A DNA stretch of 64,000 bases from PVC group bacterium (GTDB lineage Bacteria > Verrucomicrobiota > Kiritimatiellia > CAIKKV01 > CAITUY01): positions 16,321-80,320 of the forward strand of contig CAMBRF010000009.1 of the NCBI GenBank assembly GCA_945870225.1, written 5' to 3'. The position numbers and the translations under genes are program-made. Under the pieces are notes generated by a model. That model did no database searches. It saw nothing but the letters and a program-made list of their open reading frames with translations, and had not been told where the DNA came from. Of this stretch, positions 17,473 to 44,167 are shown piece by piece (the first letter of the stretch is position 1; every line of letters starts with the position of its first letter).

Positions 17473-17485
17473 AAGGAGGGGCATC

Positions 17486-27215: not shown

Positions 27216-27276
27216 TAGTTAATTGAGTTGATTTATGGGATTGATTCCTGTTAGCAATAGGACGCGGAGGAACCCC

Positions 27277-28401
27277 ATGCCCAGACAACGTGTACTTTGT
27301 GTCATTGGAACCCGGCCTGAAGCCATCAAGGTGGCACCGGTCGTGCTTGAACTCAGACGCCATGCCGCCGATTTCGAAACCCAGGTCATGGTGACGGGAC
27401 AGCATCGTCAGTTGCTCGACCAGATGCTCACCGTGTTCGATCTGCACCCGGATGTCGACCTGAACCTCATGCAGCCGAACCAGACGCTGCAGGATGTCAC
27501 GTCCCTGGTGATGCACGGCATGGAGAAGTATCTGTCCGCGAATCGCCCGGACGTCGTTCTGGCGCAGGGCGACACCACCACCGTCATGGCAACGGCCGTC
27601 GCCTGTTTCTATGCCCATACGGCGTTTGGCCACATCGAGGCCGGGCTCCGGACCGGGGACTGCTGGGCGCCCTACCCCGAGGAATTCAATCGCCGGGTGG
27701 CCGGACTGGTGGCGCGCTATCATTTTGCCCCGACACGCGGCTCAGCCATGAATCTCCATCGTGAGGGCATGCCGCCCTCCTCACTCTACATCACCGGCAA
27801 CACGGTTATTGATGCGCTCACCCAGGTTCTCCACCGCACCCAACCGCCCCCCTGCCCCGTGCCCAAGGGGGCCCCCTACATCCTGATGACCTGTCATCGC
27901 CGTGAGATTTTTGGCGCGCCCGTCCGCGAGGTCTTCGAAACCGTCCGGGATTTTGCACGGGCCCACCGTGACGTCTATGTCTGGTATCCCGTTCACCCGA
28001 ATCCGAACGTGCGCGGCCCGGCGCAGGAAATCCTGTCGGGCGTGCCCAACGTCCTGCTCACGGAACCGCTGGACTATATCGCCTTTCTGCACGCCATGAA
28101 CGGTGCCTACCTGATCTTGTCCGACTCCGGCGGCGTTCAGGAAGAGGCTCCGGCATTGAAGAAGCCCGTGCTGGTCCTGCGCGATGTGACGGAACGACCG
28201 GAGGGGGTGGAGGCAGGAACCTGCTTGCTGGTCGGCCCCCATCGCGACCGGATCGAGGCCGCGCTGGATCAACTGTTCTCCGACCGCGCACTGTACAACC
28301 GAATGACGAATACGCCGAATCCCTACGGCGACGGATTGGCCGCAAGGCGCATTGCCGACATTCTGGCCGGCCGCGGTCAGGAATGGCTGCTCAAGCCCTA
28401 G
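27277..28401 (+). CDS. wecB: UDP-N-acetylglucosamine 2-epimerase (non-hydrolysing)
   Basis: VLCVIGTRPEAIKVAPV...HIEAGLRT...DSGGVQEEAPALKKPVLVLRDVTERPE is the WecB/MnaA signature. Confidence 0.85.
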   Translation: MPRQRVLCVIGTRPEAIKVAPVVLELRRHAADFETQVMVTGQHRQLLDQMLTVFDLHPDVDLNLMQPNQTLQDVTSLVMHGMEKYLSANRPDVVLAQGDTTTVMATAVACFYAHTAFGHIEAGLRTGDCWAPYPEEFNRRVAGLVARYHFAPTRGSAMNLHREGMPPSSLYITGNTVIDALTQVLHRTQPPPCPVPKGAPYILMTCHRREIFGAPVREVFETVRDFARAHRDVYVWYPVHPNPNVRGPAQEILSGVPNVLLTEPLDYIAFLHAMNGAYLILSDSGGVQEEAPALKKPVLVLRDVTERPEGVEAGTCLLVGPHRDRIEAALDQLFSDRALYNRMTNTPNPYGDGLAARRIADILAGRGQEWLLKP

Positions 28402-28413
28402 CCGCTTTTAAAA

Positions 28414-31400
28414 TCAAGGTGGCGGCCAGGCTTTCAGACGATAAAACCGCCGGGGCGCTAAGTCGGGCGACGGGCGGCCATCACCCCCGTAATCCACCCA
28501 TACATCCTGGCTTCCACTGCCAATCAGGTTGGTGGCCGGTTGAAACTCTGATCCGGTCAGGGATTCCGCCCACTCGATCCGGAAGTTGAGGCCCGAGGCC
28601 GAATTCCACCCGATCATCCAGGCGGCCTCTGTCAGCGGCGACAGATTGCTGAGCGAAACGGGTATTTTTTCGAACCGCCCGCTTCCGGAAATGGTGACAG
28701 AACCTGACCAGTCGGCATCATTGACGTAATACAGGACGGCCCCATCAGCCACCTCAATCGTCCCGCTCCCGCTGATCGCCCAGCTGTAGCAGACATTGGT
28801 CACGGTCACCGTGCCGCCAACTTCGAGCCTTCCCAACGCGCGATTGGTCACAAACCCCTCAAGCTCGACACCCTGATCACGGCAATTCAGATCAATCCTG
28901 TGCAAGGCGGAAGTTGAAAAAGCAAGGGTGACGCCAAGCAGGGTCAAATCCTGATTGGTACCGGAGCAACTGAAGTCACCGGCTAGATTCAGCACGGTGT
29001 TTGAAGCCCCGGACGGGAATTCAAACTGGCCGTTGGGTCCGATCACAAACGAGCCCGCCGTTAATGAGCCGCTCTCAATGCGCAGTTTGCCGTTAAGAAT
29101 GGTGACACCCCCCGGTCCGGCGGCGTTGCTGACAGTCAGACTTGAAGACGCCCCGGACAGAACGATCTCGTTGCCGCCCGCCGAGGCGTATTGACCAATG
29201 ACCACATTGCTGCAGACGACACGTGCGCCATCTTCAATAAGCAGACGGTTATACGCCCCGTCCACGCCCACAATAAGGTCACCCGTGACCAGCAGGGTTG
29301 ATGAGGAGTCTTTAATGCGCACCTCATTGGAGACAGCCAGACTGTAATCGCCGATGACGAGGGCGTCACAGCTCGCCAGGCCACCGCCGCTGATATCGAG
29401 CCGGTTCCCCGCCCCATCCACCCCGATGCACAGCCGGTGCGTATTGGTCCAGACGGTTCCCGCACCGGTCAGACTTACACGATTTGAGCAGGCGGTATGC
29501 CCGACTCCGACCAGGCCGAACGCGCTTTCCACCCTGCCGCCGTTCTGCAGCTCGAGAACATTCCCGCAGCCCCCATTGCCCACGACGAGATGGCTACCGA
29601 GCGCCCATACGGAACCGGTGTCCCCCACAAAAACAAGATTGGCCGAACCGGACGTTACGGCGCCCAGTTCCCCATAGCGGGACTGGAGCCGGCCCCCGCT
29701 CATCACATAGAGGGCGTTGGAGAGGCCCGCCTGGCCCACCGTCACCCCGTACCGGTTGCTCCACACCGAACCCTCACCCTTGATCACCACCCCGTTGAAC
29801 GCGGAGGATTCCATCATCCCAATGACGGTATCCATGGCATCAACCGCACCGTTGGTCATCACGCCGACCGCATTATGCCGGCCACCATATCCGACAAAAA
29901 AGGTTTGCGCCCCAACCCAGGTGGATCCGGAATCGCACACCAACACGGTATTCGAACCGGAGGACGCGTCGAGTCCGATCAACGCTTCCTCGTTTGACAC
30001 GATGGCTCCGCCGCGAATGGCGAGGGAGTTACTGCCAGCCAGGTCACCCAGTACGAGATCGGCCCCCAGATTGGTTGAGCCGACAACGAATAGGCGCGTC
30101 GCGCCGGATTCATGGGGAACGGGATTGGTATGAATCGTCACCGCCTCCTCACGCGACAGCGTTCCGGGCGCAGCAAAGGTGTATCCCAGGGCCTGCATCT
30201 CCGCCACAAGGTTGGTGATTGGTCCCACGTCGTATTGAGGATGGTAATAGAAGCCGGCAACCACATCACGAACCACCTTTAACTTGCGTGCATACTCCAC
30301 CTTGTTGGAGATCGAGTAAACCAACCCGTTGGAGTCCAACTGGTTGGTGTCCGATACGTAGCGATCCAGGTTTTCAGGCAGCGTGCGGGTCCCGAGATGA
30401 TTCTGATAGACGGTGTAAGGAAACCACCTTGTCGCCACATTGGAACTCACGGCGGAGATCGCATCCAACGCCGCCCGGGACAACCCCTCGGTGCGATAGC
30501 GATGCAGACACATCCGCTCATGGGCCACCCGATAAAGACTTGAAAAGACACTATAATCCACAAGCGAAGCCTGGTAGTGCGGCGTTTCCCAGCATTCAAC
30601 CGGAAGACCGGCGCTCAGGAATTCGTTGGCGGAGTTCGTGACGCGCCCTTCGGCCCACGCCCAATTATCGTTCGTCAGCGGGCTTCGGGCGGCGTAGTCC
30701 CAGAATTCCCAGCCCTCGGCGCTGACTTTATCACCACTCTCATGGGTGTAGCCGTGGGCGGCAATGAAGGCCCCGCCCCGGATCAACGAGCGAATCTGCC
30801 TCAAGAACGGACGGTTCTGCGTCATCGGCAGGTCGGCAGGAGCCTGATTGGTGTATTGACCAATGGGGTCCCGGTATCGGGGAATAACGCCGAAGGTTCC
30901 CGAGATACCGAGCGCGGTAAGACTGGCGGCGATGCGGACCACTTTGGAAGTAGAAGTCAGCGCCGGCGCAACATCCTCGATTCGCGCAAGCCCGCGAGGT
31001 CCTTGAACCCCTTTGGACCCCATGATGTCGTGCAATAGATCCGCCAGAACCAGGCTGCGGTCACAGAGCGTCGATCCTTGGAATGGATTATCCGCCATGT
31101 ACCAAAAATTAGAGGACTTCAAAACATACGGAACCGGCGCCCTGGCCGTGTTGACCCGCGAGGTAAACACAGCCAGAACCGTCACGTTATTTGTGGGCTC
31201 CATGACCATCAAATCGGTGTTGGAGGGGGCATACAACCAATCACCTTTATAGGCGACGGAATCAAACCCGTTGGTCGTGTGAAGATAGCGTAAGCCCAGA
31301 TGCGTCGTGTCATTGGAACTCCCCAACAGCTTCCAGATGTTGTAGTTCAGCCAGACCACGGTATTGGTCGCGGTGCTGATGTCGGCCAGAAAAGCCGCAG

Positions 31401-31692
31401 AGGGCGATGCGTAATAATAGGATCCAACGTAAAAAACAGCCTCGTACGCTCTCATCTGCCCTGCGGCATAAGCGTTGACCGGAATCATGTCCACGGACGT
31501 CTTGAAGTGCCCCAGGAGATTCTCAAGCGAAAGAGCGTCCGACACCCCGCGTGAGAACGTGTTGGTGGACTCATCATAATAGACCACCGTCCGCCCGTAA
31601 GGAATATCGGCGCGCAGACAAGCCGGCGTCAGACTGATGGCCGCCACCACACCCGCCAGTCCCAAAAGATACGACTTCATGTTGCCCCGCAT
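28414..31692 (-). CDS. Giant secreted protein: DUF2334/polysaccharide-deacetylase-like N-terminal domain, an array of autotransporter-associated beta-strand repeats, and a conserved C-terminal module
   Basis: Signal peptide (MKSYLLGLAGVVAAISLTPA). N-domain carries HGYTH...ETPHY motifs. About 500 aa of G-x-G/L-x-V repeat units (GSTWVGAQTFFVGYGG..., GSVWALGSHLVVGNGG...) are typical of the autotransporter-associated beta-strand repeat. C-terminus ends ...PRRFYRLKAWPPP. Confidence 0.6.
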   Translation of the reverse strand: MRGNMKSYLLGLAGVVAAISLTPACLRADIPYGRTVVYYDESTNTFSRGVSDALSLENLLGHFKTSVDMIPVNAYAAGQMRAYEAVFYVGSYYYASPSAAFLADISTATNTVVWLNYNIWKLLGSSNDTTHLGLRYLHTTNGFDSVAYKGDWLYAPSNTDLMVMEPTNNVTVLAVFTSRVNTARAPVPYVLKSSNFWYMADNPFQGSTLCDRSLVLADLLHDIMGSKGVQGPRGLARIEDVAPALTSTSKVVRIAASLTALGISGTFGVIPRYRDPIGQYTNQAPADLPMTQNRPFLRQIRSLIRGGAFIAAHGYTHESGDKVSAEGWEFWDYAARSPLTNDNWAWAEGRVTNSANEFLSAGLPVECWETPHYQASLVDYSVFSSLYRVAHERMCLHRYRTEGLSRAALDAISAVSSNVATRWFPYTVYQNHLGTRTLPENLDRYVSDTNQLDSNGLVYSISNKVEYARKLKVVRDVVAGFYYHPQYDVGPITNLVAEMQALGYTFAAPGTLSREEAVTIHTNPVPHESGATRLFVVGSTNLGADLVLGDLAGSNSLAIRGGAIVSNEEALIGLDASSGSNTVLVCDSGSTWVGAQTFFVGYGGRHNAVGVMTNGAVDAMDTVIGMMESSAFNGVVIKGEGSVWSNRYGVTVGQAGLSNALYVMSGGRLQSRYGELGAVTSGSANLVFVGDTGSVWALGSHLVVGNGGCGNVLELQNGGRVESAFGLVGVGHTACSNRVSLTGAGTVWTNTHRLCIGVDGAGNRLDISGGGLASCDALVIGDYSLAVSNEVRIKDSSSTLLVTGDLIVGVDGAYNRLLIEDGARVVCSNVVIGQYASAGGNEIVLSGASSSLTVSNAAGPGGVTILNGKLRIESGSLTAGSFVIGPNGQFEFPSGASNTVLNLAGDFSCSGTNQDLTLLGVTLAFSTSALHRIDLNCRDQGVELEGFVTNRALGRLEVGGTVTVTNVCYSWAISGSGTIEVADGAVLYYVNDADWSGSVTISGSGRFEKIPVSLSNLSPLTEAAWMIGWNSASGLNFRIEWAESLTGSEFQPATNLIGSGSQDVWVDYGGDGRPSPDLAPRRFYRLKAWPPP

Positions 31693-31756
31693 GTTCGGTA
31701 TACTACCACAAAGTAATGGTTAGGCAAAATGGCAAACGGTCAGTTTCCGGGGCAAT

Positions 31757-34700
31757 ATGACACGAAACTTCGTTTTCATGACTCTTTGCGCGCTCCTGAC
31801 TGGTGCGGGGCTCACAACCCGGGCCGCTGACCTTGTCTTCAGCGAACTCATGTACAACCCGCTGCCTTCGTCAACCAACGCGGCGGATGATGATCAATTT
31901 GAATTCCTGGAACTGAGGAACACCTCCGCCTCGCCCATCAATCTGGGAGGGGCTTATTTTTCCGCCGGAATTACCTTTACCTTCCCAGCCGGCACGAATC
32001 TCGCCGCAGGCGCCTATGGCTTGCTGGTCCGCAGTGTGGCCTCCATGACGAACCGGTACGGCAGCCTGACCAACATCCTCGGCGTCTATACCGGCAAACT
32101 GGCCAACGAGGGCGAAACGGTAACCCTGCGCAAGGGCGATGGAACGATTCTTTTTTCCACGACCTATGATGACACCTTTCCGTGGCCGGAGGCACCGGAC
32201 GGGGAAGGCGCCTCGCTCGTGCTGACCGCACCCAATGGCGACCCCAATAGCCCCGGAAGCTGGGCGGCCAGCGATGCGTTCCAGGGAACCCCCGGCCGGG
32301 CGGGAGGGGGCTCCGCACCGGATGTTGTGATCAACGAGATCCTCGCCCACACTGATCCGCCTGACATTGATTCGGTCGAGTTACTGAACACCTCCACGCA
32401 GGCGGTTTCGGTGCTGGGCTGGTATCTGAGCGATGATCCGGTCCAGCGCCGCAAGTACCAGCTCACCCACACGGACGCCATTCAACCTGGTGGATTCCTG
32501 GTGCTGACCACCAACCAGTTTGACAGCCCCTCCGCCGTGGCCAGCAACCGGTTCGCCCTGAGCGAACTAGGCGAGACCCTCTATCTCACCTCATCAAACC
32601 TGGTGCGGTTTGCCGACTACGTGAAATTCGGGGCATCCTCGAACGGCGTGTCGCTGGGGCGTTCACCCGACGGCTGGGGAGGATTCACCTTCATGGTCAC
32701 CAATACGCTGGGGGACTCGAACGGGCTCGCCAAGGTGGGGCCGGTGGTGATCAGCGAGATCATGTACCATCCGGCCAGCGACAATCCGGCGGAAGAGTTC
32801 ATTGAACTGCTGAACATCACCGCGAGCAACGCGCCGCTTTACGATTCCGAAAGACCAACCAATACCTGGAAACTGGCCTCGGCCGTAGATTACCTGTTCC
32901 CGACCAACATCACGGTACCGGCAGGCGGGCGCCTGCTGGTCACGGGGGCAACAAATCTTACGGCGTTCCGGACAGCTTACAGCATCCCGACCAACATCCC
33001 GATCTACGGCCCCTGGACGGGGCAACTGGATAACGCCGGGGACAGTGTCCGGCTCTACAAGCCGGGCATCCCGGAACCGACCGGCTTCGTGCCACAGATC
33101 CTGGTGGACCGGGTGGATTACCTGGACGCCGCCCCGTGGCCGACGGCACCGGATGGCAGCGGTCCCTCTCTGGAACGGCGGGTGGCGACCAATACCGCCA
33201 ACGGCGCCTCCAACTGGTTTGTCGGACCACCGGGCGGTTCGCCGGGCGCAGCTCCCGCCGGTGGTTTTTTCACGCCATTGATCACACCCGCCGCCCCCGC
33301 CACGATGCAAACCTTCACCGTCACCGTCGCGGTCGTGGCGCAACCGCTGCCGACCCAGGTCGTTTGCCGGACGGTGATCAACGGGGTTACGAATAATCGG
33401 GTGATGAATGATGCGGGGCTGACCGGCGATGCGGTCGCAAGCAACCAGGTCTACACGACGGTCGTCGCAGGGGGGCTGTCCAACGCCACCTGGATGTATT
33501 ACGCCTTCGACGGCTATTCCAGCAACGGGGCCGTGTTCAGCCTGCCGGAATCGGAGGTGGAGTATCTCCCGGCGCCGACGGTCACGCTCGAGATATGCAA
33601 CGACGGACTGGCCTCCACCGTGGCGCCACTGGCCCATTGGACCTCCTATATGACCACCGGACTGGTGACCCACGCCGATTGTTTTCAGGTGTATCTGAAC
33701 GGGCCGGGTGAAGTCCTGCTGGATGACGTCTATCTGGTGGATGGCGACGGAACGAACCACATCGGCAACAGCGACTTTTCCGCCGCCTTGCCGGGATCAG
33801 GCTGGCTGACCAACAGCGGCAATCACCAGGCCTCGGCCCAGGAAGTCCCCTGGGATGAGGCGGGCAACGGCGTCCTTCATGTCCGCGCCACGGGCGCGGG
33901 AAACACCCCTGGCCATTTTTACGATTCGCTCAGCGCTTTTTTTACCCCTGATGACATGCAGGTCGGAACGCCGGCAACACTCTATTTCCAGGCGCGGCAG
34001 GTCAGCCGGAAAGTCCTTCACTGGTCCTGGGTTCAGGTGGGCAGTCCGCCGCCCGATGTCATCCTCAATGAGGTCATGTACCATCCGGTGCAAACCAACG
34101 AAGCGGATTACGAGTATGTGGAGCTTTTCAACCCGGCGACCGTGGCGGTGGATGTATCCGGATGGGATATCGAGGGAACGGGGTTCATGCTGCCGGCTGG
34201 CACAAGCCTGGCCCCGACCGGCTACCTGGTCTGCGCGGCGAATACATCGGCCGTGATGACGCTTTACGGGATCACGAACACGATCGGGAATTGGACCGGC
34301 ACGCTCCAGAATGGCGGTGAGACACTGATCCTGAAGAATACCCAGGGACGGGAACTGGACCGGTTGACGTATGACGATCTTGAGCCCTGGCCCGTGGCCG
34401 CGGATGGATACGGCCCCTCACTGGAAAGGGTCAATCCTGCGGTGACCGGGAACACCAACCTGAACTGGGCGGCGTCCGCCGCGGATACAAACTGGCAGCA
34501 GGTGGTGCTTACCAATGCGGTGGGGACCAATGCGATTCTTTCCTTTTATCTGGATTACGACGGAAAATGCTGGGTGGACGATGTGTCGGTCAAGGCCGTC
34601 GGCAGCGCGGTCGAACTGACAAGCAACGGGACCTTCGAGACGGGAATGCAGGGATGGGTCGCCACCAATAATCACTCCCAATCCCGTACCGAAACGGGAA

Positions 34701-37507
34701 TGGGGCGCGGCGGCGGACAGGCCCTGGCCCTGGTCGGGAACGCCTCGCGCTGGACGCCCGGCGATCCGCCCCGTGAATTGATTCTTTATGGGGACGGGGC
34801 CAGCAACCGGGTTTATTCGACCCCTCTGGCCGCGCAGGCCGGAACAAATTATATCCTGTCATGGTGGGTTCGCCGGCAGGGACTCGGCGACAATGTGTAT
34901 GGCGTGGTCGGCGCAACCACGGGCAAGGTAGCGTTCACGACCCAAGGTTCGCCCGGCCGTCTTAACAGCGTCCATTCAGGACTGGCCCCGTTCGGCCTCG
35001 AGCAGGGTGCGCGATCCTTCGACGTCGGCACGGTGGGCTCCACCAACATCATCCGGGCCCGGATCACACCGGCCGGTGCCGCCACCAATGTGCAGTTCCG
35101 CTACCGGGAGGTGGGATCCAACACCTATCAGTTCAGCGACGCCCAGTACACCTCCCTCACCATGCGCGATGACGGGGTGGCGCCCGACAGCGTGGCCTCT
35201 GACGGGGAGTACGCCAGCGAAGGACCGCCCGCCACCTCGGCCTGGACCCTGGTTCGCTATCAGATCCTGGCCCTGGGCACCAACGGCGTGGTCGCCACCC
35301 GCCCGGCCCAGGACGATCCCAGCACCGATTACGCCTACTGGATTCAAGGGGTCGCCGTGCAAACGAATCTGCCCGACTGGCACATGATGATGGACGGCCA
35401 TCCCCTCGCCTACCCCTTTGTCCGACGCGCCTGTGCGGTCAGCCCGAACGGACAAGCCTTCACCGACGTTTCCGTCCGGCATCGCGGACGTATTGAATCC
35501 GGAAACACCTCCTTCCGGACGGGCGTGGCGGTCCGCATGCATCGCAGTCGGCTGTTGAACGCCTGGTTCGCCAACAAACAGGGCGGCATTAATTTCCGGA
35601 ACCGGATCTATAATACCTTCACCGATTACACCCGGGTGGTCAACGAATGGCTGGGCTACGACCTGCAGCGGGTGGTCGGTCTTCCCGCACCCCGAACCCG
35701 GCATGTCTGCCTCTGGCTCAACGGGGTGCCCACCATCACCGTGGAACTGGAGGATCCCGAGGAGGACTTCCTCAAGGGAAACGGAATTGATAAGAACGAT
35801 TACGTCAGCCGGGCGGGCTGGACCGGCCGCAACCTGACCGGGGGCGACTCCGCCCTGGACAATCTCAATGACGTCAACGCCCAGTTGGATAGCGCCACAG
35901 GGGCTGCCAAGAACGACCTTGTCCGCACCAACCTGTGGTATGAGTCCATTCAGCACAGTCTGGCGCTCCTTGCGATGACCGCCAATGCGGACCAGTTTTT
36001 CGTGTGGAACATGTTCCAGCATCGTCGTGCTGCCGACGGACGCTGGGAGCAATTCCCCTGGGATGTGGATATGAGTTTCCGCACCGACACCATCATCAGC
36101 GGCCCCAACACCAATGTCCTGCCGCAATTGCATCCCTATTATCAGAACCCGCTTCATCCCAGCATCTGGGACGACACCCCGCCCCCCAGCTCCGCCGCCA
36201 GCACGCTCGGCAAAACTCTTTTCTATCCTGAAAACGGGACCGGCTCGGAATTTACCCTTCCCTACCGCCACCGCCAGCAGATGACCTTGTGGCGGTATTT
36301 CCATACCCTTCAAACCACGAATTACCTGTTCCCCAAGCTCGATACTCTTCAGGCGCAACTGCTCCCCGCGTTTATCCAGCTGGGCATCTCCCGGACGGCG
36401 TTTACCAATCAGGTGATCTCCGTGAAACAGGCGATTCTGGACCGGCGCACCTTCCTCCAGAACGGAACCTGGTCCGACAAGAACACGACCCTCTGGAATC
36501 CCACCAACATCTATGTCACCACCAACGTGGTCATTAACGAGATCATGTGCGATCCGCCGGCCGGCGGGGAATACCTGGAGCTCTACAATCGCGGTGGCCA
36601 GGCCGTGGATCTAAGCCAGTGGACCCTGCAGGCGGGCAGTGAGTCCTATCGCCTGCCTTTCGGAACCATGTTGGGGGCCACGTCCTATCTGGTGGTGGCC
36701 GATGCCCAGCCGGTGCTCACGAATTATTACACGGAACTGGGCAACGGGACCGCCTTGATTCAGCGTTATCCGGAAACACCCATCTGGGATAGCCCGCTCG
36801 TCTGGACCTCGGCGACCGAGTATGCGAGCCGCGTGCTTGAGATTCCCTCGCTCACTCTGCCCAATGCCGGCGGTTCCCTCACACTCTCCGATCTCGCCGG
36901 AACCGTGATCGATGCGGTGACCTACGGCGTCACCCCGCCGTGGCCAACAAACCCGGCCGCCTCGTTTGAACTGATCGATGCCGGGACCAACAATAACACG
37001 GGAGCCGCCTGGCGTTCCTCGGCGCTGGTCGGGACCCCCGGCTGGGTCAACACCGCGGCAGCGGACCGGGATGCCGACACCCTTCCGGATGACTGGGAAC
37101 AAGGCATCGTCGATTCCAATCCCGGGGACGGGATCACCCACGTAACCGGGGTCCTGGGCGCGGATGATTTCGATGATGACGGAGCGCCCAATGTCGTGGA
37201 ATATGTGGCCGGAACCGATCCCACCCTCGACGATGCGGATACGCTGCGGTTACGGATCGACCAGTCAAACGGCGTGATCGCCGTGGAATTCGACACCCTG
37301 CCTATTCAGGGGGACGCCTATCTGGCATTCGATGCCCGGCGTTACACCCTTGATTGGCAGCCTCAGCTCCGCCTGACCAACAACTGGGACAGTGTCGCCA
37401 ACTTCGCCGGTCTGACCGGGATCGGGCAGACGATCCTCTACACGAACGCCCTCGTCCCACCCTCCGCTTTCTACCGGTACCGGATCGAATTGCATCCCAG
37501 GCGTTAA
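31757..37507 (+). CDS. Giant secreted protein with five lamin-tail domains (LTD), a CotH-kinase-like domain and C-terminal TSP3/dockerin-like Ca-binding repeats
   Basis: Signal peptide. Five LTD signatures (LVFSELMYNP..., VVINEILAHTDPPDIDSVELLN, VVISEIMYHPASDNPAEEFIELLN, VILNEVMYHPVQTNEADYEYVELFN, VVINEIMCDPPAGGEYLELYN). A globular region at about aa 1210-1560 is CotH-like (LWLNGVPTITVELEDPEE..., FPWDVDMSF). Acidic repeats DRDADTLPDDWEQG...DDFDDDGAPNVVEY follow. C-terminus ends ...SAFYRYRIELHPRR. Confidence 0.65.
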   Translation: MTRNFVFMTLCALLTGAGLTTRAADLVFSELMYNPLPSSTNAADDDQFEFLELRNTSASPINLGGAYFSAGITFTFPAGTNLAAGAYGLLVRSVASMTNRYGSLTNILGVYTGKLANEGETVTLRKGDGTILFSTTYDDTFPWPEAPDGEGASLVLTAPNGDPNSPGSWAASDAFQGTPGRAGGGSAPDVVINEILAHTDPPDIDSVELLNTSTQAVSVLGWYLSDDPVQRRKYQLTHTDAIQPGGFLVLTTNQFDSPSAVASNRFALSELGETLYLTSSNLVRFADYVKFGASSNGVSLGRSPDGWGGFTFMVTNTLGDSNGLAKVGPVVISEIMYHPASDNPAEEFIELLNITASNAPLYDSERPTNTWKLASAVDYLFPTNITVPAGGRLLVTGATNLTAFRTAYSIPTNIPIYGPWTGQLDNAGDSVRLYKPGIPEPTGFVPQILVDRVDYLDAAPWPTAPDGSGPSLERRVATNTANGASNWFVGPPGGSPGAAPAGGFFTPLITPAAPATMQTFTVTVAVVAQPLPTQVVCRTVINGVTNNRVMNDAGLTGDAVASNQVYTTVVAGGLSNATWMYYAFDGYSSNGAVFSLPESEVEYLPAPTVTLEICNDGLASTVAPLAHWTSYMTTGLVTHADCFQVYLNGPGEVLLDDVYLVDGDGTNHIGNSDFSAALPGSGWLTNSGNHQASAQEVPWDEAGNGVLHVRATGAGNTPGHFYDSLSAFFTPDDMQVGTPATLYFQARQVSRKVLHWSWVQVGSPPPDVILNEVMYHPVQTNEADYEYVELFNPATVAVDVSGWDIEGTGFMLPAGTSLAPTGYLVCAANTSAVMTLYGITNTIGNWTGTLQNGGETLILKNTQGRELDRLTYDDLEPWPVAADGYGPSLERVNPAVTGNTNLNWAASAADTNWQQVVLTNAVGTNAILSFYLDYDGKCWVDDVSVKAVGSAVELTSNGTFETGMQGWVATNNHSQSRTETGMGRGGGQALALVGNASRWTPGDPPRELILYGDGASNRVYSTPLAAQAGTNYILSWWVRRQGLGDNVYGVVGATTGKVAFTTQGSPGRLNSVHSGLAPFGLEQGARSFDVGTVGSTNIIRARITPAGAATNVQFRYREVGSNTYQFSDAQYTSLTMRDDGVAPDSVASDGEYASEGPPATSAWTLVRYQILALGTNGVVATRPAQDDPSTDYAYWIQGVAVQTNLPDWHMMMDGHPLAYPFVRRACAVSPNGQAFTDVSVRHRGRIESGNTSFRTGVAVRMHRSRLLNAWFANKQGGINFRNRIYNTFTDYTRVVNEWLGYDLQRVVGLPAPRTRHVCLWLNGVPTITVELEDPEEDFLKGNGIDKNDYVSRAGWTGRNLTGGDSALDNLNDVNAQLDSATGAAKNDLVRTNLWYESIQHSLALLAMTANADQFFVWNMFQHRRAADGRWEQFPWDVDMSFRTDTIISGPNTNVLPQLHPYYQNPLHPSIWDDTPPPSSAASTLGKTLFYPENGTGSEFTLPYRHRQQMTLWRYFHTLQTTNYLFPKLDTLQAQLLPAFIQLGISRTAFTNQVISVKQAILDRRTFLQNGTWSDKNTTLWNPTNIYVTTNVVINEIMCDPPAGGEYLELYNRGGQAVDLSQWTLQAGSESYRLPFGTMLGATSYLVVADAQPVLTNYYTELGNGTALIQRYPETPIWDSPLVWTSATEYASRVLEIPSLTLPNAGGSLTLSDLAGTVIDAVTYGVTPPWPTNPAASFELIDAGTNNNTGAAWRSSALVGTPGWVNTAAADRDADTLPDDWEQGIVDSNPGDGITHVTGVLGADDFDDDGAPNVVEYVAGTDPTLDDADTLRLRIDQSNGVIAVEFDTLPIQGDAYLAFDARRYTLDWQPQLRLTNNWDSVANFAGLTGIGQTILYTNALVPPSAFYRYRIELHPRR

Positions 37508-38793
37508 GCCGGGCCGCCTAACGCCGCCGGGGCGTGCTTCCAGCGATAGAGGATTTCGCCCGCCCGCCGCACACAGAGGATGCCCTCCGCCTCGCGGTTC
37601 TCGTAGTCGCTGATCCTGATCGAGCGCGGATCCAGATAACCGAGGTTTACCCGGCGACAGACGGACTCGGGAATGGAGGTGGCCAGAATGACCTCGACGC
37701 GCGGCTTCTCCACGCCATTCTCGTAAGTCCCGATGCCCTTCACATGCGTCGAGTGCGCCACCACCCCCCAGGGATAATCCTTGTACTTGTCCCACTGCTT
37801 CAGGAAGAAATCCCGCGTGTGGTAGCCGATCTTCTCCAGCACGGCGCCGTGCACCGAGGACAGCTCCGTGATGTGCGGGGCATAGATGATCACCTTGCCG
37901 CCGTCCGACACCACGGGCTCAATCTTGTACATGCACTTTCCGCCGGTCCAGATGTCATCATACATTTCCGGCGCGCAGGACAAAACCGTGTGGAACGGCT
38001 TCTCCGAATAATGGGTGTGGATCTGACTGGAAAGATCCGCCGCCGCCGACCAGGCTTCCTCCGGGGTCCCGGCATAGAGACCGGCCAGTTCGTGGTTCTG
38101 GACCACCATGCAGAACGCCTTCTGCTCGATCTTCAACATGGCCGCCGCGCGATCCACCACCCGCCGCACGGGCGTCCACTTGTTGCCAATGATCACCGGA
38201 TTCGTGATCACGGCCCCGAGCCAGTGGAAGAAATCGATGATTTCCTGCCCTGCAATGCCCGGGAAGAGGTATTTTCCGCCTCCCGAGAAACCGACCACCT
38301 CGTGGGGGAATACCGGACCGATGATGACCAGCACATCGTAGTCCATCACCATCCGGTTACAGGTGATCCGCACATCCATTTCAAAACGCCCCTCCGTGAT
38401 CTCACGGACGTCGGATCGGGTAAACCGCCCCACTTCCACCAGTTGATCGGGGTTCTTCCATTCATGATTGAAAAAGCGCGCCTTGGGATAGCTCTGCGCA
38501 TGCTCGGCGGCGGTGATTCCCATTCGCTTGTGGATCTGCTCCAAGGTCAGCGGCGGGTGGGTCCCCAAAGCGATCAGGAAATCCATGAGTTTGACGCGCC
38601 CGGCCAGCCGTTCGTACAGCAGGCGGAACATCTGATCCATCGGGCAGGTCCGGGACAGGTCCGGAACAACAAACAGGACCCGCTTGCCGTCAAGGGCCCA
38701 CCGCGCCACGGCCTGATCGCAAATGGCGGCAACGTCTTTCTCAGTCAACAGGCCGTTTCGGGAACCGGCCCCCAGAAGGGTTGGGTCACTCAT
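37504..38793 (-). CDS. LarA-like protein (nickel-pincer-nucleotide-dependent lactate racemase family / DUF2088)
   Basis: About 430 aa; VVGFSGGGKYLFPGIAG and FHWLGAV-like stretches are typical of LarA homologues. No larB/larC/larE nearby. Confidence 0.55.
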   Translation of the reverse strand: MSDPTLLGAGSRNGLLTEKDVAAICDQAVARWALDGKRVLFVVPDLSRTCPMDQMFRLLYERLAGRVKLMDFLIALGTHPPLTLEQIHKRMGITAAEHAQSYPKARFFNHEWKNPDQLVEVGRFTRSDVREITEGRFEMDVRITCNRMVMDYDVLVIIGPVFPHEVVGFSGGGKYLFPGIAGQEIIDFFHWLGAVITNPVIIGNKWTPVRRVVDRAAAMLKIEQKAFCMVVQNHELAGLYAGTPEEAWSAAADLSSQIHTHYSEKPFHTVLSCAPEMYDDIWTGGKCMYKIEPVVSDGGKVIIYAPHITELSSVHGAVLEKIGYHTRDFFLKQWDKYKDYPWGVVAHSTHVKGIGTYENGVEKPRVEVILATSIPESVCRRVNLGYLDPRSIRISDYENREAEGILCVRRAGEILYRWKHAPAALGGPA

Positions 38794-39030
38794 AATCTGT
38801 TCTTTCTTTCATTTAGGCCCGGGTCTCCGGAACCGGCGGAACCAACACCAGATCCAGAATGCCAGACGAAGGTGAACCGGCAGCGGTGGCTCCGCCCCCG
38901 CCCGGCCCGGAACGTCCCTGTCCGGGCGCATATACTCTCTTTCATACAGCGACATCAGGAAATAAGCATAACCTCTGCACTCCGGAACCGCAAGCCGAGT
39001 TCAAAACCCGGGCAACACGGCGGGGCAATT

Positions 39031-39100
39031 CGCGACCCCGCGACCTCGTGTCGCGGGCCGCACAAATTTCAGGCACCTGCCGCGCAAGGCGGCAGGGAAC
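39031..39100. repeat. Double-hairpin repeat element, family B copy (single unit), inverted relative to the copy at 54860-55000
   Basis: Its reverse complement is about 92% identical over ~70 bp to 54935-55000 (cctgccgc-cttg-gcggcagg hairpin followed by cccgcgac-acgag-gtcgcggg hairpin). Confidence 0.6.
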
Positions 39101-39205
39101 CTAAAACCCAGGGACGCGGGCGGCTTGACTTTCCTCCCCCTCTTGGCAGAGAATGCAGCCGTGACAAACGACGGCATCAGCCAACCCAATGGCGGTAAAA
39201 AGGGC

Positions 39206-40981
39206 ATGACTACGGTTCCGCATGGATTGAGATTTACGGATGTCCTCCTTAAACGGGGAGCCATCAGTGAAGAGGTGTTGCATCAGGCCCAGGAGAAAGC
39301 CCACGGTCTCTCCGTGCGCCTGGAAAAGTACCTGCTGGATAATAAGCTGATCGCGCCGGCGGACATCACCCTGGGACTGGCCGAGTACCTGCACATGTCC
39401 CCCATCACCCTCTCCCAATTCTCGCCCAATCCCCAACTCATCGAGTCTTTTCCGGCCGACGTCCTGAAAAAGCATCAGGCGCTACCCCTCATGAAAATCG
39501 GCGGAACGCTGGTGGTGGCGCTGGGAGACCCGTTCGACATCGTGGCGGTGGATGAACTGCACGTCCTGACCGGACTGAACGTCACGCCCCTGGTCGCCAG
39601 TGAAAAGGAACTTCAGGACACCCTGGCCAAGGTGCTGGCAGTGCCAGAAGCCCAGCAGGATATCGACCTGGAAGACATCATGAAAGGCCCTGACAGCGAG
39701 GTCGAGGTCGGACATGATGAGAAAAACGAAGTCAGCCTTGAAGAAATGATGGAACGCGCGGAAGGTGCCCCGGTCATCCGCATGGTGAACATGATTCTGG
39801 TGGAGGCACTGAGGACACGGGCCAGTGACATTCATATTGAACCGCAGGATAAAACCTTGCGCGTACGGTACCGGCTCGACGGCGGCATGGTGGAACGGCC
39901 CAGTCCTGCCAAGAGTTTTCACGCCGCCATTGTTTCCCGTATCAAGATCATGTCGGATCTGGACATCGCGGAACGGCGCGTCCCCCAGGACGGCCGCTTC
40001 AGGATCAAGGCGCTGGGCAAAGAGGTGGACATCCGCGTCAGTATTCTCCCCTCCATCTTCGGCGAGAAAATCGTCATGCGTGTGCTGGATAAAAGCGCCC
40101 TTTTCCCCAGTTTGAGCGGATTGGGTCTGGATGAAGTTTCGTTCAAGGCCTTGTCCTACGCCATTGACCAACCACACGGCATCATCCTGGTGACCGGTCC
40201 CACGGGAAGCGGTAAGACGACCACCCTCTATTCCTGTCTTCAGGAATTGAACAAGCCCGATGTCAACATCGTGACCTGCGAGGATCCCGTTGAATACCAG
40301 TTGCTGGGACTCACCCAAGTCCAGGTGAACGCCCATGTCGGGCTGACTTTTTCCGCCGCCTTGCGGTCCATCTTACGGCAGGATCCCGATATTGTGCTGG
40401 TCGGTGAGATCCGCGATACCGAAACGGCGGAAATCGCTGTCAAGGCGGCGCTCACCGGACATCTGGTGCTCAGCACGCTGCACACCAATGATGCAGCGGG
40501 CGCCATTGCCCGATTGATCGACATGGGCATCCCGCCCTTCCTGCTCTCGTCCTCCTTGGTCCTGTCCCAAGCCCAGCGTCTTTACCGGAAATTGTGCCTT
40601 GCCTGCCGCCAGGAGGTGGCCCTGCCTGTGGATGTCCTGACGGCGAACAAAATCGATCCTGCCTTTTTCCTGCGCCAGACCGGGAAGGGAACAGAGGGCA
40701 CCGGCTCGCCGAAGGTCGCCGCTGGATATACGCCCATCTACCGGGCGGTGGGCTGCCCGAAATGCAACGGCACAGGGTACAAGGGACGAGGCGCCATCAT
40801 GGAAGTGCTCCCCATGGATGATGAGATCAAGCAGATGATCATGAAAGGCGCCACGAGCGGAGAAATCCGGACAGTCGCCCGCACCAAAGGGATGATCACC
40901 CTCAAGGAAAGCGGGCTTCAGAAGGTCAAAGAAGGGATCACGTCCCTCGAAGCGGCCCTTGAGATGACAGGCGGAGAATGA
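39206..40981 (+). CDS. Type II secretion / type IV pilus assembly ATPase (GspE/PilB family)
   Basis: T2SSE N-terminal domain, Walker A VTGPTGSGKTT, Asp box, Walker B, and a tetracysteine motif (CLACRQ...CPKCNGTGY). The ATG at 39206 is preferred over the TTG-initiated longer ORF. Confidence 0.85.
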   Translation: MTTVPHGLRFTDVLLKRGAISEEVLHQAQEKAHGLSVRLEKYLLDNKLIAPADITLGLAEYLHMSPITLSQFSPNPQLIESFPADVLKKHQALPLMKIGGTLVVALGDPFDIVAVDELHVLTGLNVTPLVASEKELQDTLAKVLAVPEAQQDIDLEDIMKGPDSEVEVGHDEKNEVSLEEMMERAEGAPVIRMVNMILVEALRTRASDIHIEPQDKTLRVRYRLDGGMVERPSPAKSFHAAIVSRIKIMSDLDIAERRVPQDGRFRIKALGKEVDIRVSILPSIFGEKIVMRVLDKSALFPSLSGLGLDEVSFKALSYAIDQPHGIILVTGPTGSGKTTTLYSCLQELNKPDVNIVTCEDPVEYQLLGLTQVQVNAHVGLTFSAALRSILRQDPDIVLVGEIRDTETAEIAVKAALTGHLVLSTLHTNDAAGAIARLIDMGIPPFLLSSSLVLSQAQRLYRKLCLACRQEVALPVDVLTANKIDPAFFLRQTGKGTEGTGSPKVAAGYTPIYRAVGCPKCNGTGYKGRGAIMEVLPMDDEIKQMIMKGATSGEIRTVARTKGMITLKESGLQKVKEGITSLEAALEMTGGE

Positions 40982-41018
40982 TCCCGGAATGTGACAATAC
41001 TGACAGGGAGAACAGGAA

Positions 41019-42200
41019 ATGAGTCCAGCCATTGGTCCCGCGAGCCCTTCTCGCACACCTGCCCAGAAAAGCGCCCGCCCGTCCTCCGCCCCGAAAAGAC
41101 CCGCGGCTCCTTCGCAAAAATCCGCCCGGCCGCTCCACAATAAGCGGGTCCGCGGGGCTAATAAGATTGTCAACAAGGACTTGCCTTCTTTCTCGCGCCA
41201 GATGGCCGCCATGCTGGCAGCGGGCATGCCCATCGTCGCATCCCTTGAAACCCTCGAGGAACAGGCGGTCAACCCAAACTTCAAGATGGTCCTATCGGAG
41301 GTCAGAAAAAGCATCGAGGGTGGGGCCTCCTTCTCCGAGAGCCTGGCGCAAATACCTGACGTTTTCGAGGTGCTTTACGTCAACATGGTCCGCGCCGGGG
41401 AACAGAGCGGACAGTTTGCCGAAACCATGAAGCGTATCGGAGACCTGCTTGAGGCCAACGCCAAGCTCAAACGTAAGGTCAAATCAGCCCTGACTTATCC
41501 GGTGGTGGTTCTGTCCATGTCCCTGATCATTGCGGCAGGCATGATCATCTTCATCGTGCCGGTCTTTGCGAGCATGTATAAGGATTTCGGTTCGGCCTTG
41601 CCCGGGCCCACCCAGTTCCTGGTCGATCTAAGTGATGGGGCCAAGAAATACAGTCCCATCATTATCCCGGCCATCTTGGCAGCGGTGTGGATGTTCAAGC
41701 GCTGGAAGAAAACAGACGCCGGCGCCTGGGTCATGGACGGGTTTGCACTCAAGGCCCCCGTCATCGGCGGCCTGGTCCAAAAAGTGGCCATCGCCCGATT
41801 CTCCCGAACTCTGGCCCAACTCGTTCAAAGCGGCGTCCCCATCTTGAATGCCATGGAAATTGTCGCCAAGGCCGCCGGAAACCGGGTGATCGAGGCTGCC
41901 ATCATGGAGGCACGCCAGTCGGTTGAACATGGCGACACGCTGTCTGTCGGCTTATCCAACAAGGCCTGCATCCCCACTCTCGTCGTCCGAATGATGGCCG
42001 CCGGAGAGAAAACAGGAAAAGTGGACGAAATGCTGAGTAGCGTGGCCGACACCTTCGACGATGAGGTGGAAACCATGCTGGCGTCGCTGACCTCCCTGCT
42101 CGAACCCCTGCTTATGGTCTTCCTCGGCGTCGTGATCGGCGGCATCGTAATCTGCATGTTCCTGCCGATCTTTAAGATGAGCGAAGTCATCAATAAATAA
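41019..42200 (+). CDS. Type II secretion / type IV pilus platform protein (GspF/PilC family) with a low-complexity basic N-terminus
   Basis: Two GspF domains (LSRQMAAMLAAGMPIV...; ARFSRTLAQLVQSGVPILNAME...) and three TM helices; AGGGAG RBS. Confidence 0.8.
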   Translation: MSPAIGPASPSRTPAQKSARPSSAPKRPAAPSQKSARPLHNKRVRGANKIVNKDLPSFSRQMAAMLAAGMPIVASLETLEEQAVNPNFKMVLSEVRKSIEGGASFSESLAQIPDVFEVLYVNMVRAGEQSGQFAETMKRIGDLLEANAKLKRKVKSALTYPVVVLSMSLIIAAGMIIFIVPVFASMYKDFGSALPGPTQFLVDLSDGAKKYSPIIIPAILAAVWMFKRWKKTDAGAWVMDGFALKAPVIGGLVQKVAIARFSRTLAQLVQSGVPILNAMEIVAKAAGNRVIEAAIMEARQSVEHGDTLSVGLSNKACIPTLVVRMMAAGEKTGKVDEMLSSVADTFDDEVETMLASLTSLLEPLLMVFLGVVIGGIVICMFLPIFKMSEVINK

Positions 42201-42568: not shown

Positions 42569-42790
42569 TTCCTTTTGGAGGTGTTAAGGCGGTCAAGCCT
42601 GGGCGGACATAGCCCCCGTCATTTAGGAGACTCTACACTGGATGACTTGCCGCTCCAGGGAGTTCCCGGCCACAACTCTGCCCTTCAGCAGGTCCATATT
42701 CCCGTCTTCGAGAAATTGAGAAATTTATTGCCTTTTAACGGGAATGAAAGTACCATCTGGGCCAGTATTGATGATTCAGAAAGGCAAATC

Positions 42791-44167
42791 ATGGCGCGGA
42801 TTCTCCTTGTTGACGACGAACCCCGAATGCTGAGCCTCATGAACAGCCTTCTCAAGGCTGAAGGCTACGACGTCATGTCGGTTCAGGACGGGAACAAGGC
42901 TCGGGACCTCCTGAATACGGAGATTTTCGACCTGATGATTTCCGACATCCGCATGACCCCCATCAACGGGATGGAACTCCTGAAGATATCCCGCGGGGTT
43001 CGCCCGACCATGCCGGTTATCATTCTGACGGCCTTCGGCTCGGTGGAAACAGCCATTGAGGCCATGAAACTGGGGACATTCGACTACGTCACCAAGCCCT
43101 TCAAGATGGACGAACTCCTGATCACCATTCAACGGGCGCTGGAATACAGCCGCGCTTTGTCCGAAAATCTGGAACTTAAAGAGGAACTCGTCGGCCGGTA
43201 CAAATTTGAGAATATCGTGGCCGAAAGTCCCGCCATGCGCCACGTATGCGAGATGATTAAACGCGTGGCCCCGGCCGACACCACGGTTCTGATCACCGGC
43301 GAAAGCGGAACGGGGAAGGAACTGGTCGCCAAGGCGATCCATGCCTACAGCCGCCGCAAGGACAAGCGGTTTCTAGCCGTCAACTGCGCCGCCCTGCCCG
43401 AGGCCCTCCTGGAATCAGAAATGTTCGGCCATATGAAGGGCTCTTTTACGGGCGCATCCGCCAACAAGGAAGGCCTTTTCGAGACGGCCAGCGGCGGCAC
43501 CCTTTTCCTGGATGAAATTTCGTCCATGCCGATCGGAATCCAGGGAAAACTGCTCCGCGTCCTTCAGGAAAAAGAAATCCGGCGAGTGGGAGGGAACGAC
43601 GACATTTCCATCGATGTGCGCGTCATTGCCGCCACCAATACCAGCCTGGAATCGTTGATCCAGCAAGGAAAGTTCAGGGAAGACCTCTACTACCGGCTGA
43701 GTGTTATCCCCATTGAAATCAAGCCCCTGCGCGACCGCCAGGATGATATCCTCCCCCTCGTCTATCACATTTTACGCCATGAGACCCCGGAAGGAAAGGA
43801 TCTGCCCAAACTGCTCCCGGAAACCAAGGACATGTTGGAGCGGTATACCTGGCCCGGCAATGTTCGCGAACTCGAAAATGCCGTTAAACACGCCATCACC
43901 TTCTCAGTGGAAGGCAAAATTACCCCCGACGTTCTTCCCCCGAGAATCCTGAATCAGATCCAACCTCTGGCCAAGCCCAACGCCTCAACCGACCCCGCCA
44001 GTGATCCTTATCGCAATAAATCGTTGAAATCCTTCCTGCGCGAACGGGAACGGGAGTATCTGGAACAGGTTCTCTCCCTTTCGAAGGGTGATAAGGAGCA
44101 GGCCGCCAAATCCCTGAAGATCAGTCTCGCCACGCTCTACCGTAAACTCCCCGGGGCACCGGAATGA
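42791..44167 (+). CDS. Sigma-54-dependent response regulator (NtrC/PilR family enhancer-binding protein)
   Basis: REC domain (ILLVDDEPRMLSL...DLMISDIRMTPINGMELL), AAA+ sigma54-interaction domain (GESGTGKELVAKAIH, GAFTGA-like ESEMFGHMKGSFTGA) and a C-terminal HTH; ATG at 42791. Confidence 0.85.
   Translation: MARILLVDDEPRMLSLMNSLLKAEGYDVMSVQDGNKARDLLNTEIFDLMISDIRMTPINGMELLKISRGVRPTMPVIILTAFGSVETAIEAMKLGTFDYVTKPFKMDELLITIQRALEYSRALSENLELKEELVGRYKFENIVAESPAMRHVCEMIKRVAPADTTVLITGESGTGKELVAKAIHAYSRRKDKRFLAVNCAALPEALLESEMFGHMKGSFTGASANKEGLFETASGGTLFLDEISSMPIGIQGKLLRVLQEKEIRRVGGNDDISIDVRVIAATNTSLESLIQQGKFREDLYYRLSVIPIEIKPLRDRQDDILPLVYHILRHETPEGKDLPKLLPETKDMLERYTWPGNVRELENAVKHAITFSVEGKITPDVLPPRILNQIQPLAKPNASTDPASDPYRNKSLKSFLREREREYLEQVLSLSKGDKEQAAKSLKISLATLYRKLPGAPE

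Follow-up and report, generated by a model that had tools for sequence, protein, structure and literature searches.

What does a secreted CotH kinase do in a bacterium that does not sporulate, and where would an enzyme working outside the cell obtain its phosphate donor? The sole genetic data on the first question are Pel-linked aggregation phenotypes in Streptococcus intermedius. Both questions are touched, though not answered, by one locus in a 64,000-nucleotide stretch of a PVC group bacterium genome (assembly GCA_945870225.1, contig CAMBRF010000009.1, positions 16,321 to 80,320; hereafter the window, whose own numbering we use). There, a gene for a 1916-residue protein with five lamin-tail domains (LTDs) and a CotH kinase-like domain is transcribed divergently from a gene for a second giant exoprotein, which carries a DUF2334 domain. 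We favor, at slightly better than an even chance, a reading in which the LTD-CotH protein is a Sec-exported, polymer-bound CotH phosphotransferase that acts with its DUF2334 partner on matrix or exopolysaccharide. Sequence comparison and structure prediction underlie this reading, and its enzymatic core maps as follows.

31757..37507, plus strand: whole open reading frame (ORF) of the LTD-CotH exoprotein, from full-length alignment with 17 relatives
35312..36496, plus strand: CotH kinase-like domain, aa 1186-1580, from Pfam PF08757, a PDB profile search, and AlphaFold2 (AF2) with Foldseek
35987..36010, plus strand: catalytic-loop motif A-D1412-Q1413-F-F-V-W-N1418, from alignment
36053..36079, plus strand: metal-binding WDxD motif, F-P-W1435-D1436-V-D1438-M-S-F, from alignment

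The ORF begins with ATG, and its position and length are exactly those given by an earlier, sequence-only reading of this DNA. We scanned the protein against Pfam both whole and cut into ten segments, each scanned alone. PF08757 scored 35.1 bits in the whole protein and 39.8 bits in its segment (cut-off 23.8), spanning aa 1286-1466 and profile positions 41-242 of 322, and was found in all 18 full-length relatives. A direct search of the PDB with the whole protein sequence gave no match; a profile of the subfamily (A1) matched a single protein there, B. cereus CotH (5JD9/5JDA), with an E-value of 2.5e-8. An AF2 model of aa 1180-1585 (mean predicted local distance difference test score, pLDDT, 71.9; predicted template-modeling score, pTM, 0.78) overlays 5JDA/5JD9 in Foldseek over about 400 columns with E 4.7e-15, probability 1.0, and TM scores of 0.64/0.71. 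The next matches, to PI3K, HipA and tyrosine kinases, all have E-values above 1e-3. By three independent routes, then, through profiles and a predicted structure, the central region is assigned as a CotH domain. The sequence-only reading had proposed just this and had named the lack of a CotH match there as grounds for giving it up; HMM search and structure prediction both returned CotH. The motifs it quoted, LWLNGV (aa 1319-1324), ELEDPEE (aa 1330-1336) and FPWDVDMSF (aa 1433-1441), lie on columns conserved across CotH proteins.

For the active site, we aligned 15 family domains, 77 generic CotH domains and B. cereus CotH in MAFFT, taking the B. cereus reference from a printed alignment (...QNFD224GFVHN229Y...IPW246D247YD249). 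Since both pairs are spaced 23 residues apart, we equate B. cereus D224 and D247 with B. subtilis D228 and D251, and B. subtilis CotH is catalytically dead when mutated to D228Q or D251A (PMC7821199). D1412 aligns with B. cereus D224, and 14 of the 15 family members have it. W1435-D1436-V-D1438 aligns without gaps with B. cereus W246-D247-Y-D249 and is present in 15 of 15; among the 77 generic domains, the WDxD motif occurs in 94-100%. Equally constant in the family are N1418, E1332, G1308, G1323 and R1243; these positions correspond to residues conserved in the generic CotH domains and in B. cereus CotH, of which E124, G99, G114, F130/L131 and R51 are likewise retained. Q1413, too, is invariant, as are many arginines. 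In P0013, Ser stands where the rest of the family has D1412, with N, WDxD and the other conserved residues kept; this protein may be a natural pseudokinase inside the family.

Loss of the catalytic residues had been named beforehand as the outcome that would speak against an enzyme; instead, the equivalents of both essential B. subtilis aspartates are retained (D1412 in 14 and D1436 in 15 of the 15 domains). Near-invariance of the Asp, the Asn and WDxD across sequences only 47-55% identical is the pattern expected from purifying selection on an active site. From this we conclude that selection has conserved the catalytic core and that the domain is likely a competent phosphotransferase. The proposal of an extracellular or surface kinase-like enzyme gains support from the CotH fold and these conserved residues, with activity itself being predicted.

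The divergently transcribed neighbor provides the second line of evidence.

28414..31692, minus strand: partner gene, a 1092-aa exoprotein with DUF2334 at aa 235-494, type V secretion system (T5SS)/PEP-CTERM-associated repeats and the C-terminus ...RRFYRLKAWPPP
31693..31756, no strand: divergent intergenic spacer of 64 bp between the partner and the LTD-CotH gene

The pairing with a giant exoprotein across 64 bp, pointed out in the sequence-only reading, is confirmed by these coordinates. The partner has a signal-peptide-like N-terminus, a match to PF10096 (DUF2334; E 2.5e-33) and then TIGR04393 repeats (E 2e-18). The same divergent DUF2334/LTD-CotH pair occurs at locus L001, which encodes the relative with the closest CotH domain; its partner is 44% identical and its spacer about 52 bp long. 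In a further relative, P0015 (locus L023, 1021-9504; GCA_024712225.1, contig JANIFD010002186.1), LTD-CotH is fused to a DUF2334/T5SS-repeat protein in a single uninterrupted ORF of 2827 aa. Over 1073 aa, the fused part and the DUF2334 protein of the window share 39% identity, and the join lies directly after LTD5, at what is the partner's mature N-terminus; the LTD-CotH part has lost its own calcium motifs and C-terminal domain. Because of this fusion, our strongest evidence on the point, we propose a joint function for the two window genes. Every one of the three DUF2334 copies (window, L001 and P0015) has the motifs RxEDV, HGYTH and WETPHY without change. We take them to resemble the Asp/His-His metal motifs of carbohydrate esterase family 4 (CE4) deacetylases, and DUF2334 is presumably a member of the deacetylase clan in Pfam. 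Thus, the fusion points to a glycan-modifying pair. In the literature we found nothing relevant on the function of DUF2334 or DUF4956.

Related loci point in a similar direction. Seven of them (L001, L002, L010, L014, L017, L020 and L031) carry some or all of a VTC-domain gene, a DUF4956 gene, a membrane-fusion protein (MFP) gene and a TolC-like outer-membrane efflux protein (OEP) gene, usually in tight co-directional operons with the LTD-CotH gene. VTC and DUF4956 are adjacent in L010, L014, L017, L020 and L031; L001 and L002 carry just the MFP/OEP part. The L031 operon runs LTD-CotH, VTC (with a 4-bp overlap), DUF4956, MFP-like and OEP. The operons span 3618-12145 in L014, 417-10823 in L017, 5591-15693 in L020 and 10001-19827 in L031. 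We take the VTC-domain protein to be polyphosphate-polymerase-like. In streptococci, clostridia and bifidobacteria, genes for CotH, a polyphosphate (polyP) polymerase and DUF4956 are accessory genes contiguous with pelDEADAFG (bioRxiv 10.1101/768473 = PMC7112168), and deletion of the secreted CotH gene SIR_1594 or of the DUF4956-type gene in S. intermedius lowers Pel and reduces aggregation (PMC12345266). The PVC operons appear to echo this trio known from Gram-positive bacteria and to add components for export across the outer membrane. We found no publication on PVC CotH-VTC-DUF4956-export operons.

Other family members have different company. At L026/L027 (15839-25835; relative P0007), a GDSL-type gene, a response-regulator-GGDEF-HD protein and DUF4434 lie nearby, together with a 1129-aa tetratricopeptide repeat (TPR) + NfrA_C protein and a glycosyltransferase family 2 (GT2) protein with a weak MshEN match (NfrB-like). 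We assume that these genes resemble an NfrA/NfrB-type exopolysaccharide system controlled by cyclic di-GMP (c-di-GMP). AlgX/GDSL genes stand beside the family member in L024, and GDP-mannose-dehydratase-type (sugar-nucleotide dehydratase) and LysM genes occur in L007, L013 and L019.

Outside the CotH domain, the LTD-CotH protein comprises a putative export signal and a series of mostly beta-rich modules, with beta-sandwich modules making up about 80% of its length.

31757..31825, plus strand: putative Sec signal peptide, aa 1-23, with cleavage after TRA, read by eye
31823..32167, plus strand: LTD1, aa 23-137 (PF00932, 50.4 bits)
32315..32599, plus strand: LTD2, aa 187-281 (PF00932, 44.8 bits)
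32735..33082, plus strand: LTD3, aa 327-442 (PF00932, 38.3 bits)
33242..34036, plus strand: region X1, aa 496-760, conserved in relatives
34043..34375, plus strand: LTD4, aa 763-873 (PF00932, 66.8 bits)
34445..34966, plus strand: carbohydrate-binding-module (CBM)-like region X2, aa 897-1070, with CWVDDVSVKAV ... LTSNGTFETGMQGW, from a family profile
34979..35296, plus strand: region X3, aa 1075-1180, with a choice-of-anchor-X motif (DDGVAPDSVASDGEYAS; NCBIfam NF041940)
36518..36928, plus strand: LTD5, aa 1588-1724 (PF00932, 64.1 bits)
37064..37204, plus strand: two acidic motifs resembling thrombospondin type 3 (TSP3) repeats or EF hands, aa 1770-1781 and 1803-1816, from sequence reading
37244..37504, plus strand: C-terminal beta-sandwich domain, aa 1830-1916, ending ...FYRYRIELHPRR, from an AF2 model
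28414-28460 (minus strand), 37460-37504 (plus strand) and 49490-49526 (plus strand): C-terminal motifs of three window proteins, ...RRFYRLKAWPPP in the DUF2334 partner, ...SAFYRYRIELHPRR in the LTD-CotH protein and ...STFFRIIQK in a DUF7901 protein

By eye, the N-terminus reads MTR/NFVFMTLCALLTGAGLTT/RA-AD, a putative Sec-type signal peptide with LTD1 directly after it, and relatives share this layout, with a hydrophobic stretch directly before LTD1. Together with the LTD, CBM-like and TSP3-like modules, it is consistent with the extracellular or surface location suggested earlier. PF00932 covers five stretches of the whole protein (E 2.5e-71), and each of the five segments, scanned singly, exceeds the Pfam gathering score (38.3-66.8 versus 34.3 bits), in agreement with the five LTDs counted in the sequence-only reading.

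Region X1 has no Pfam match at E below 0.04; it is kept in 13 of 17 relatives at 38-54% identity, its NDAGLTGDAVASNQVY motif resembles one in X3, and its ...LLDDVYLVD/IGNSDFSAALPGSGW junction is similar to the one in X2. For X2, family profile A7 matched PDB chain 4mgq_A over aa 897-975 (E 7.9e-8); this chain has 168 aa and was deposited under the name 'Glycosyl hydrolase family 10'. CBM_4_9 (PF02018) appears below threshold at this position in 3 of 18 relatives (21.9-25.3 bits; cut-off 25.9), and the window copy gave no Pfam match. We read aa 897-1070 as a CBM-like domain, with sugar binding as a prediction only. In X3, NF041940 scores 27.4 bits at aa 1134-1153 (cut-off 25).

The sequence-only reading had also described a C-terminal TSP3-like D-x-D-x-DG repeat region, which stands in part. 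Two motifs are seen, DRDADTLPDDWE at aa 1770-1781 and DDFDDDGAPNVVEY at aa 1803-1816, with the family consensus DxDGDGLxDxWEQ and DDFDGDGxxNxxEF; they do not form an array, and aa 1762-1916 of the window protein gave no match to the Pfam TSP3 family (PF18884) even at E<=1. Relatives do match: TSP3_bac in Pfam matches 4 of 18 full-length proteins, and the NCBIfam thrombospondin-type models MtsD and CglD match 6 of 16 and 4 of 16 C-terminal segments, respectively. An AF2 model of the C-terminal 167 aa (pLDDT 80, pTM 0.75) shows two short helical acidic-motif segments followed by a beta-sandwich, for which Foldseek found generic fibronectin type III (FN3)/immunoglobulin (Ig)-like matches only, at E 0.1 or worse. 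The family consensus of this domain is ...YTN......FYRxxxxLxPxR. We considered it as a known sorting signal and dropped the idea, as no sorting-domain model in NCBIfam or Pfam matched. Three window proteins with signal peptides share an aromatic-aromatic-Arg-hydrophobic motif near the C-terminus, and the DUF2334 fusion protein keeps exactly one such terminus. Such a terminus may serve these bacteria as a common C-terminal element for protein sorting or anchoring.

Overall, these data fit a model in which a CotH-family atypical kinase domain, probably catalytically competent, would form the enzymatic core of a protein exported by a PVC-superphylum bacterium of the Verrucomicrobiota, Kiritimatiellia or Lentisphaeria type. 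The five Ig-like LTD modules, at least one CBM-like module, two calcium-binding-type motifs and the FN3/Ig-like C-terminal domain would anchor this enzyme to a polymer outside the cell, which is most likely the exopolysaccharide or matrix of the cell itself. The enzyme would act jointly with the divergently transcribed exoprotein, which would contribute a deacetylase-like domain on a beta-helical repeat stalk: a matrix component, probably an amino-sugar exopolysaccharide, would be deacetylated by the partner and phosphorylated by the CotH domain. We propose an exopolysaccharide role because neighbors of the family include UDP-GlcNAc 2-epimerase, GT2, NfrAB-like, AlgX/GDSL and VTC/DUF4956/MFP/OEP genes.

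Several observations weigh against this model. The canonical loop spacing D-G-F-x-x-N (D-x4-N) was not found; the family instead has D-Q-F-F-V-W-N (D-x5-N), with one extra residue, which moves the Asn by one position, and Q in place of the canonical G, and AF2 confidence is lowest at this very loop, with pLDDT below 50 at aa 1411-1415. Across the 15 family CotH domains there is no invariant lysine and no ATP-binding lysine could be assigned, and generically conserved positions are altered, with G replaced by D1348, K by R1352 and the 'EKKT' stretch absent. The deacetylase assignment of DUF2334 combines motif resemblance with a presumed Pfam clan, a sequence search of the PDB with the partner's DUF2334 domain gave no match, and the DUF2334 pairing is seen in two of 23 loci plus one fusion. 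Most family neighborhoods are heterogeneous. In the window, no Pel family name turned up in Pfam scans of the genes at 10.4-49.5 kb, and tblastn from the related loci against the whole window found no VTC, DUF4956, HlyD or OEP at E below 0.2. Because the catalytic loop is atypical, we make no firm call on catalytic competence. The same loop, its low model confidence, the missing lysine and the Ser of P0013 would also suit a non-catalytic adhesin or scaffold, in which a CotH pseudokinase serves as a binding module within a structural surface or matrix fiber of Ig-like modules; the predominance of beta-sandwich modules fits this as well, and fungal CotH proteins reportedly serve as host-receptor ligands (PMC9973265). 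We nonetheless consider a scaffold unlikely, given how constant the Asp, the Asn and WDxD are across such divergent sequences, and the invariance of Q1413 and of many arginines suggests a conserved ligand pocket, not decay.

Somewhat more doubtful is a part in polysaccharide degradation or foraging, with the protein binding foreign algal or plant glycans, as cellulosomal CotH modules do, and leaving the cell's own matrix unmodified. The relation of the CBM-like module to a glycoside hydrolase family 10 (GH10) xylanase module speaks for it, as do the C. thermocellum cellulosomal proteins CseP (CotH) and Cthe_0239 (LTD-LTD-Fn3-CotH) (PMC6083626), the family's occurrence in PVC lineages known to degrade polysaccharides (PMC7356697), and a rhamnosidase in L031 and a CBM9 protein in L028. 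However, no glycoside hydrolase or sulfatase gene adjoins the window gene, and the recurrent neighbors are biosynthetic, export or modification genes, from the DUF2334 fusion through the epimerase, GT2 and NfrAB-like genes to VTC/DUF4956/MFP/OEP. Lower still do we rate a secreted kinase of protein substrates such as surface proteins or pili, with no glycan role, by analogy with B. subtilis CotH acting on CotB/CotG. The only biochemically characterized CotH enzymes are Ser/Thr protein kinases (PMC7821199), genes for ATPases of the type II secretion system (T2SS)/type IV pilus (T4P) type lie beside family members in the window, L022 and L024, and the window encodes a pseudopilin-like 687-aa protein at 15409-17472. 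Yet no Ser/Lys/Arg-rich repeat gene like cotB/cotG adjoins the window gene, and glycans are the substrate suggested by the CBM-like module and by the fusion to a deacetylase-like domain. All three explanations are weaker than that of a matrix phosphotransferase.

An extension of the matrix phosphotransferase model, which we regard as a long shot, concerns the phosphate donor. Here, LTD-CotH would be the extracellular arm of a trans-envelope phosphoryl supply: synthesis and translocation of polyphosphate would fall to a VTC-like polymerase and the DUF4956 membrane protein, and its passage through the outer membrane, in diderm PVC bacteria, to the MFP and TolC-like channel. With its arginine-lined pocket and altered loop, the CotH domain might then use polyphosphate in place of ATP to (poly)phosphorylate exopolysaccharide deacetylated by the DUF2334 protein.

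The sequence-only reading had considered the protein to be of unusual size; on comparison, neither its size nor its set of domains stands out among CotH proteins. LTDs are present in 36 of 60 generic CotH relatives, and P0019 (1681 aa) combines three LTDs, a CBM_4_9, a canonical CotH domain and two TSP3_bac repeats; C. thermocellum Cthe_0239 is annotated LTD-LTD-Fn3-CotH (PMC6083626). The architecture is a common, ordinary kind for CotH proteins. What is new is its genetic link to a DUF2334 partner and the PVC operons with outer-membrane export genes, two modest leads that yield testable hypotheses for matrix phosphorylation.

The subfamily itself is small. A word-indexed search of 5.8 billion proteins returned a single truncated relative (P0001), and an exhaustive HMMER search of 1.84 billion cluster representatives returned 14 near-full-length relatives (E below 1e-100, 47-55% identity) and one 520-aa fragment (E 9e-54). 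Beyond a gap came generic CotH proteins with E 1e-12 or worse and 25-30% identity. Because this E-value gap is wide, we assign the CotH domain to a small, divergent subfamily. In a full-length alignment, 17 relatives of 1479-2827 aa show 42-60% identity, and since all 1916 aa align with them, we regard the whole architecture as a conserved unit. An exact-sequence look-up of the window protein gave no matching record, and a literature search found nothing relevant on this LTD-CotH subfamily in PVC bacteria. Scanning one genome for each of 185,579 species, we found 22 loci encoding proteins of 1175-2621 aa, all in metagenome-assembled genomes (MAGs); 19 bear the label Verrucomicrobiota (one of them a Spartobacteria bin), Kiritimatiellia, Pontiella (L012), Victivallales or Lentisphaerae, and the other three have no taxon label. 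So far, the subfamily has been seen only in PVC-superphylum assemblies. Similarity among its members is mosaic: the window gene is 72-81% identical to its counterpart in L022 (6452-12172) over aa 1-500 and 33-66% afterwards, and it is 63-74% identical to that in L001 (6410-12211) over the CotH region (aa 1201-1500) and 37-66% elsewhere. This pattern suggests recombination or gene conversion between family members.

Around the gene pair, we identified two further features in the window.

27235..28401, plus strand: UDP-GlcNAc 2-epimerase (PF02350, E 1.4e-107)
39125..42200, plus strand: T2SS/T4P-type ATPase (MshEN + T2SSE) and T2SS F-type platform protein (Pfam)

Two GT2 genes, a radical-SAM gene, a TPR protein and DUF975 also lie nearby. 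The minus-strand ORF 37504-38793 has a match to LarA_N (lactate racemase N-terminal domain), and L022 contains a gene 80% identical to it; because this LarA_N ORF overlaps it on the opposite strand, the 554-aa ORF at 37534-39198 (plus strand) is probably spurious. In L022, T2SS genes 72-81% identical to the window's stand next to the family member, which there sits downstream of the LarA_N/T2SS-E/T2SS-F genes, whereas in the window the same genes lie downstream of the LTD-CotH copy. MshEN is a c-di-GMP-binding domain, and T2SS-E-type ATPases bearing it adjoin family members in the window (39125-40981, plus strand), L022 (3310-5130) and L024 (15845-20358), the last with three MshEN/T2SS-E-type ATPases in a row. 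These ATPases may be related to export or regulation of the exoproteins. The 687-aa ORF at 15409-17472 (plus strand) has a prepilin/pseudopilin-type N-terminus (…CGYSMVEMMVSLAIVIIAV…), and neither it nor the next ORF, at 17441-18670, has a Pfam match. A sigma-54-dependent response regulator is encoded near the gene in the window (42575-44167, plus strand), L011 (3494-4927) and L014 (2159-3523); at the latter two loci, a PAS histidine kinase accompanies it, right beside the LTD-CotH gene or operon. We set sigma-54 control aside: the 300 bp upstream of the window gene contain no GG-N10-GC site, and weak candidates were seen only in L014 and L017.

How does this protein compare with known CotH systems? 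With Bacillus CotH (B. subtilis; B. cereus 5JD9/5JDA) it shares the Pfam family, the atypical kinase fold and the Asp, Asn and WDxD residues, at 16% identity. Bacillus CotH, however, is a single domain of about 360 aa that acts in the mother cell of a spore former on CotB and CotG, whereas the window protein has 1916 aa and a putative signal peptide, comes from a diderm lineage that does not form spores, has one more residue in its catalytic loop and lacks a CotB/CotG-like neighbor. Across the family, too, the 22 loci come from PVC-lineage or unclassified MAGs and their neighbors are unrelated to cotB/cotG, which sets them apart from the Bacillus CotH/CotB/CotG module. Closer in layout are generic LTD-CotH exoproteins such as P0019 and Cthe_0239, with several LTDs, a CBM, CotH and TSP3-type calcium motifs; these have a canonical CotH domain (215 bits to PF08757 in P0019, versus 35 bits in the window protein), whereas the window subfamily has five LTDs in fixed order and its own C-terminal domain.

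The Gram-positive Pel accessory genes encode the secreted CotH SIR_1594, the VTC polyP-polymerase SIR_1593 and the DUF4956/MgtC-ACT protein SIR_1592. The likeness is that of a secreted CotH tied to exopolysaccharide genes including a deacetylase, with VTC/DUF4956 genes near members of the PVC family. Unlike Pel loci, the window lacks VTC and DUF4956 genes, and no pel gene could be identified in it. An MFP and a TolC-like outer-membrane factor are extra components of the PVC operons, DUF2334 stands in place of PelA as deacetylase-like partner, and SIR_1594 is CotH+FN3 without LTDs. More remotely, CotH is distantly related to Fam20C (PMC7821199). Neither sequence nor Foldseek searches with the window CotH domain gave a Fam20 match, and the likeness lies in an atypical kinase fold outside the cytoplasm. 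Fam20C is a protein kinase and Fam20B a xylose kinase, both eukaryotic Golgi proteins of the secretory pathway, and Fam20B thus offers a precedent for a glycan substrate.

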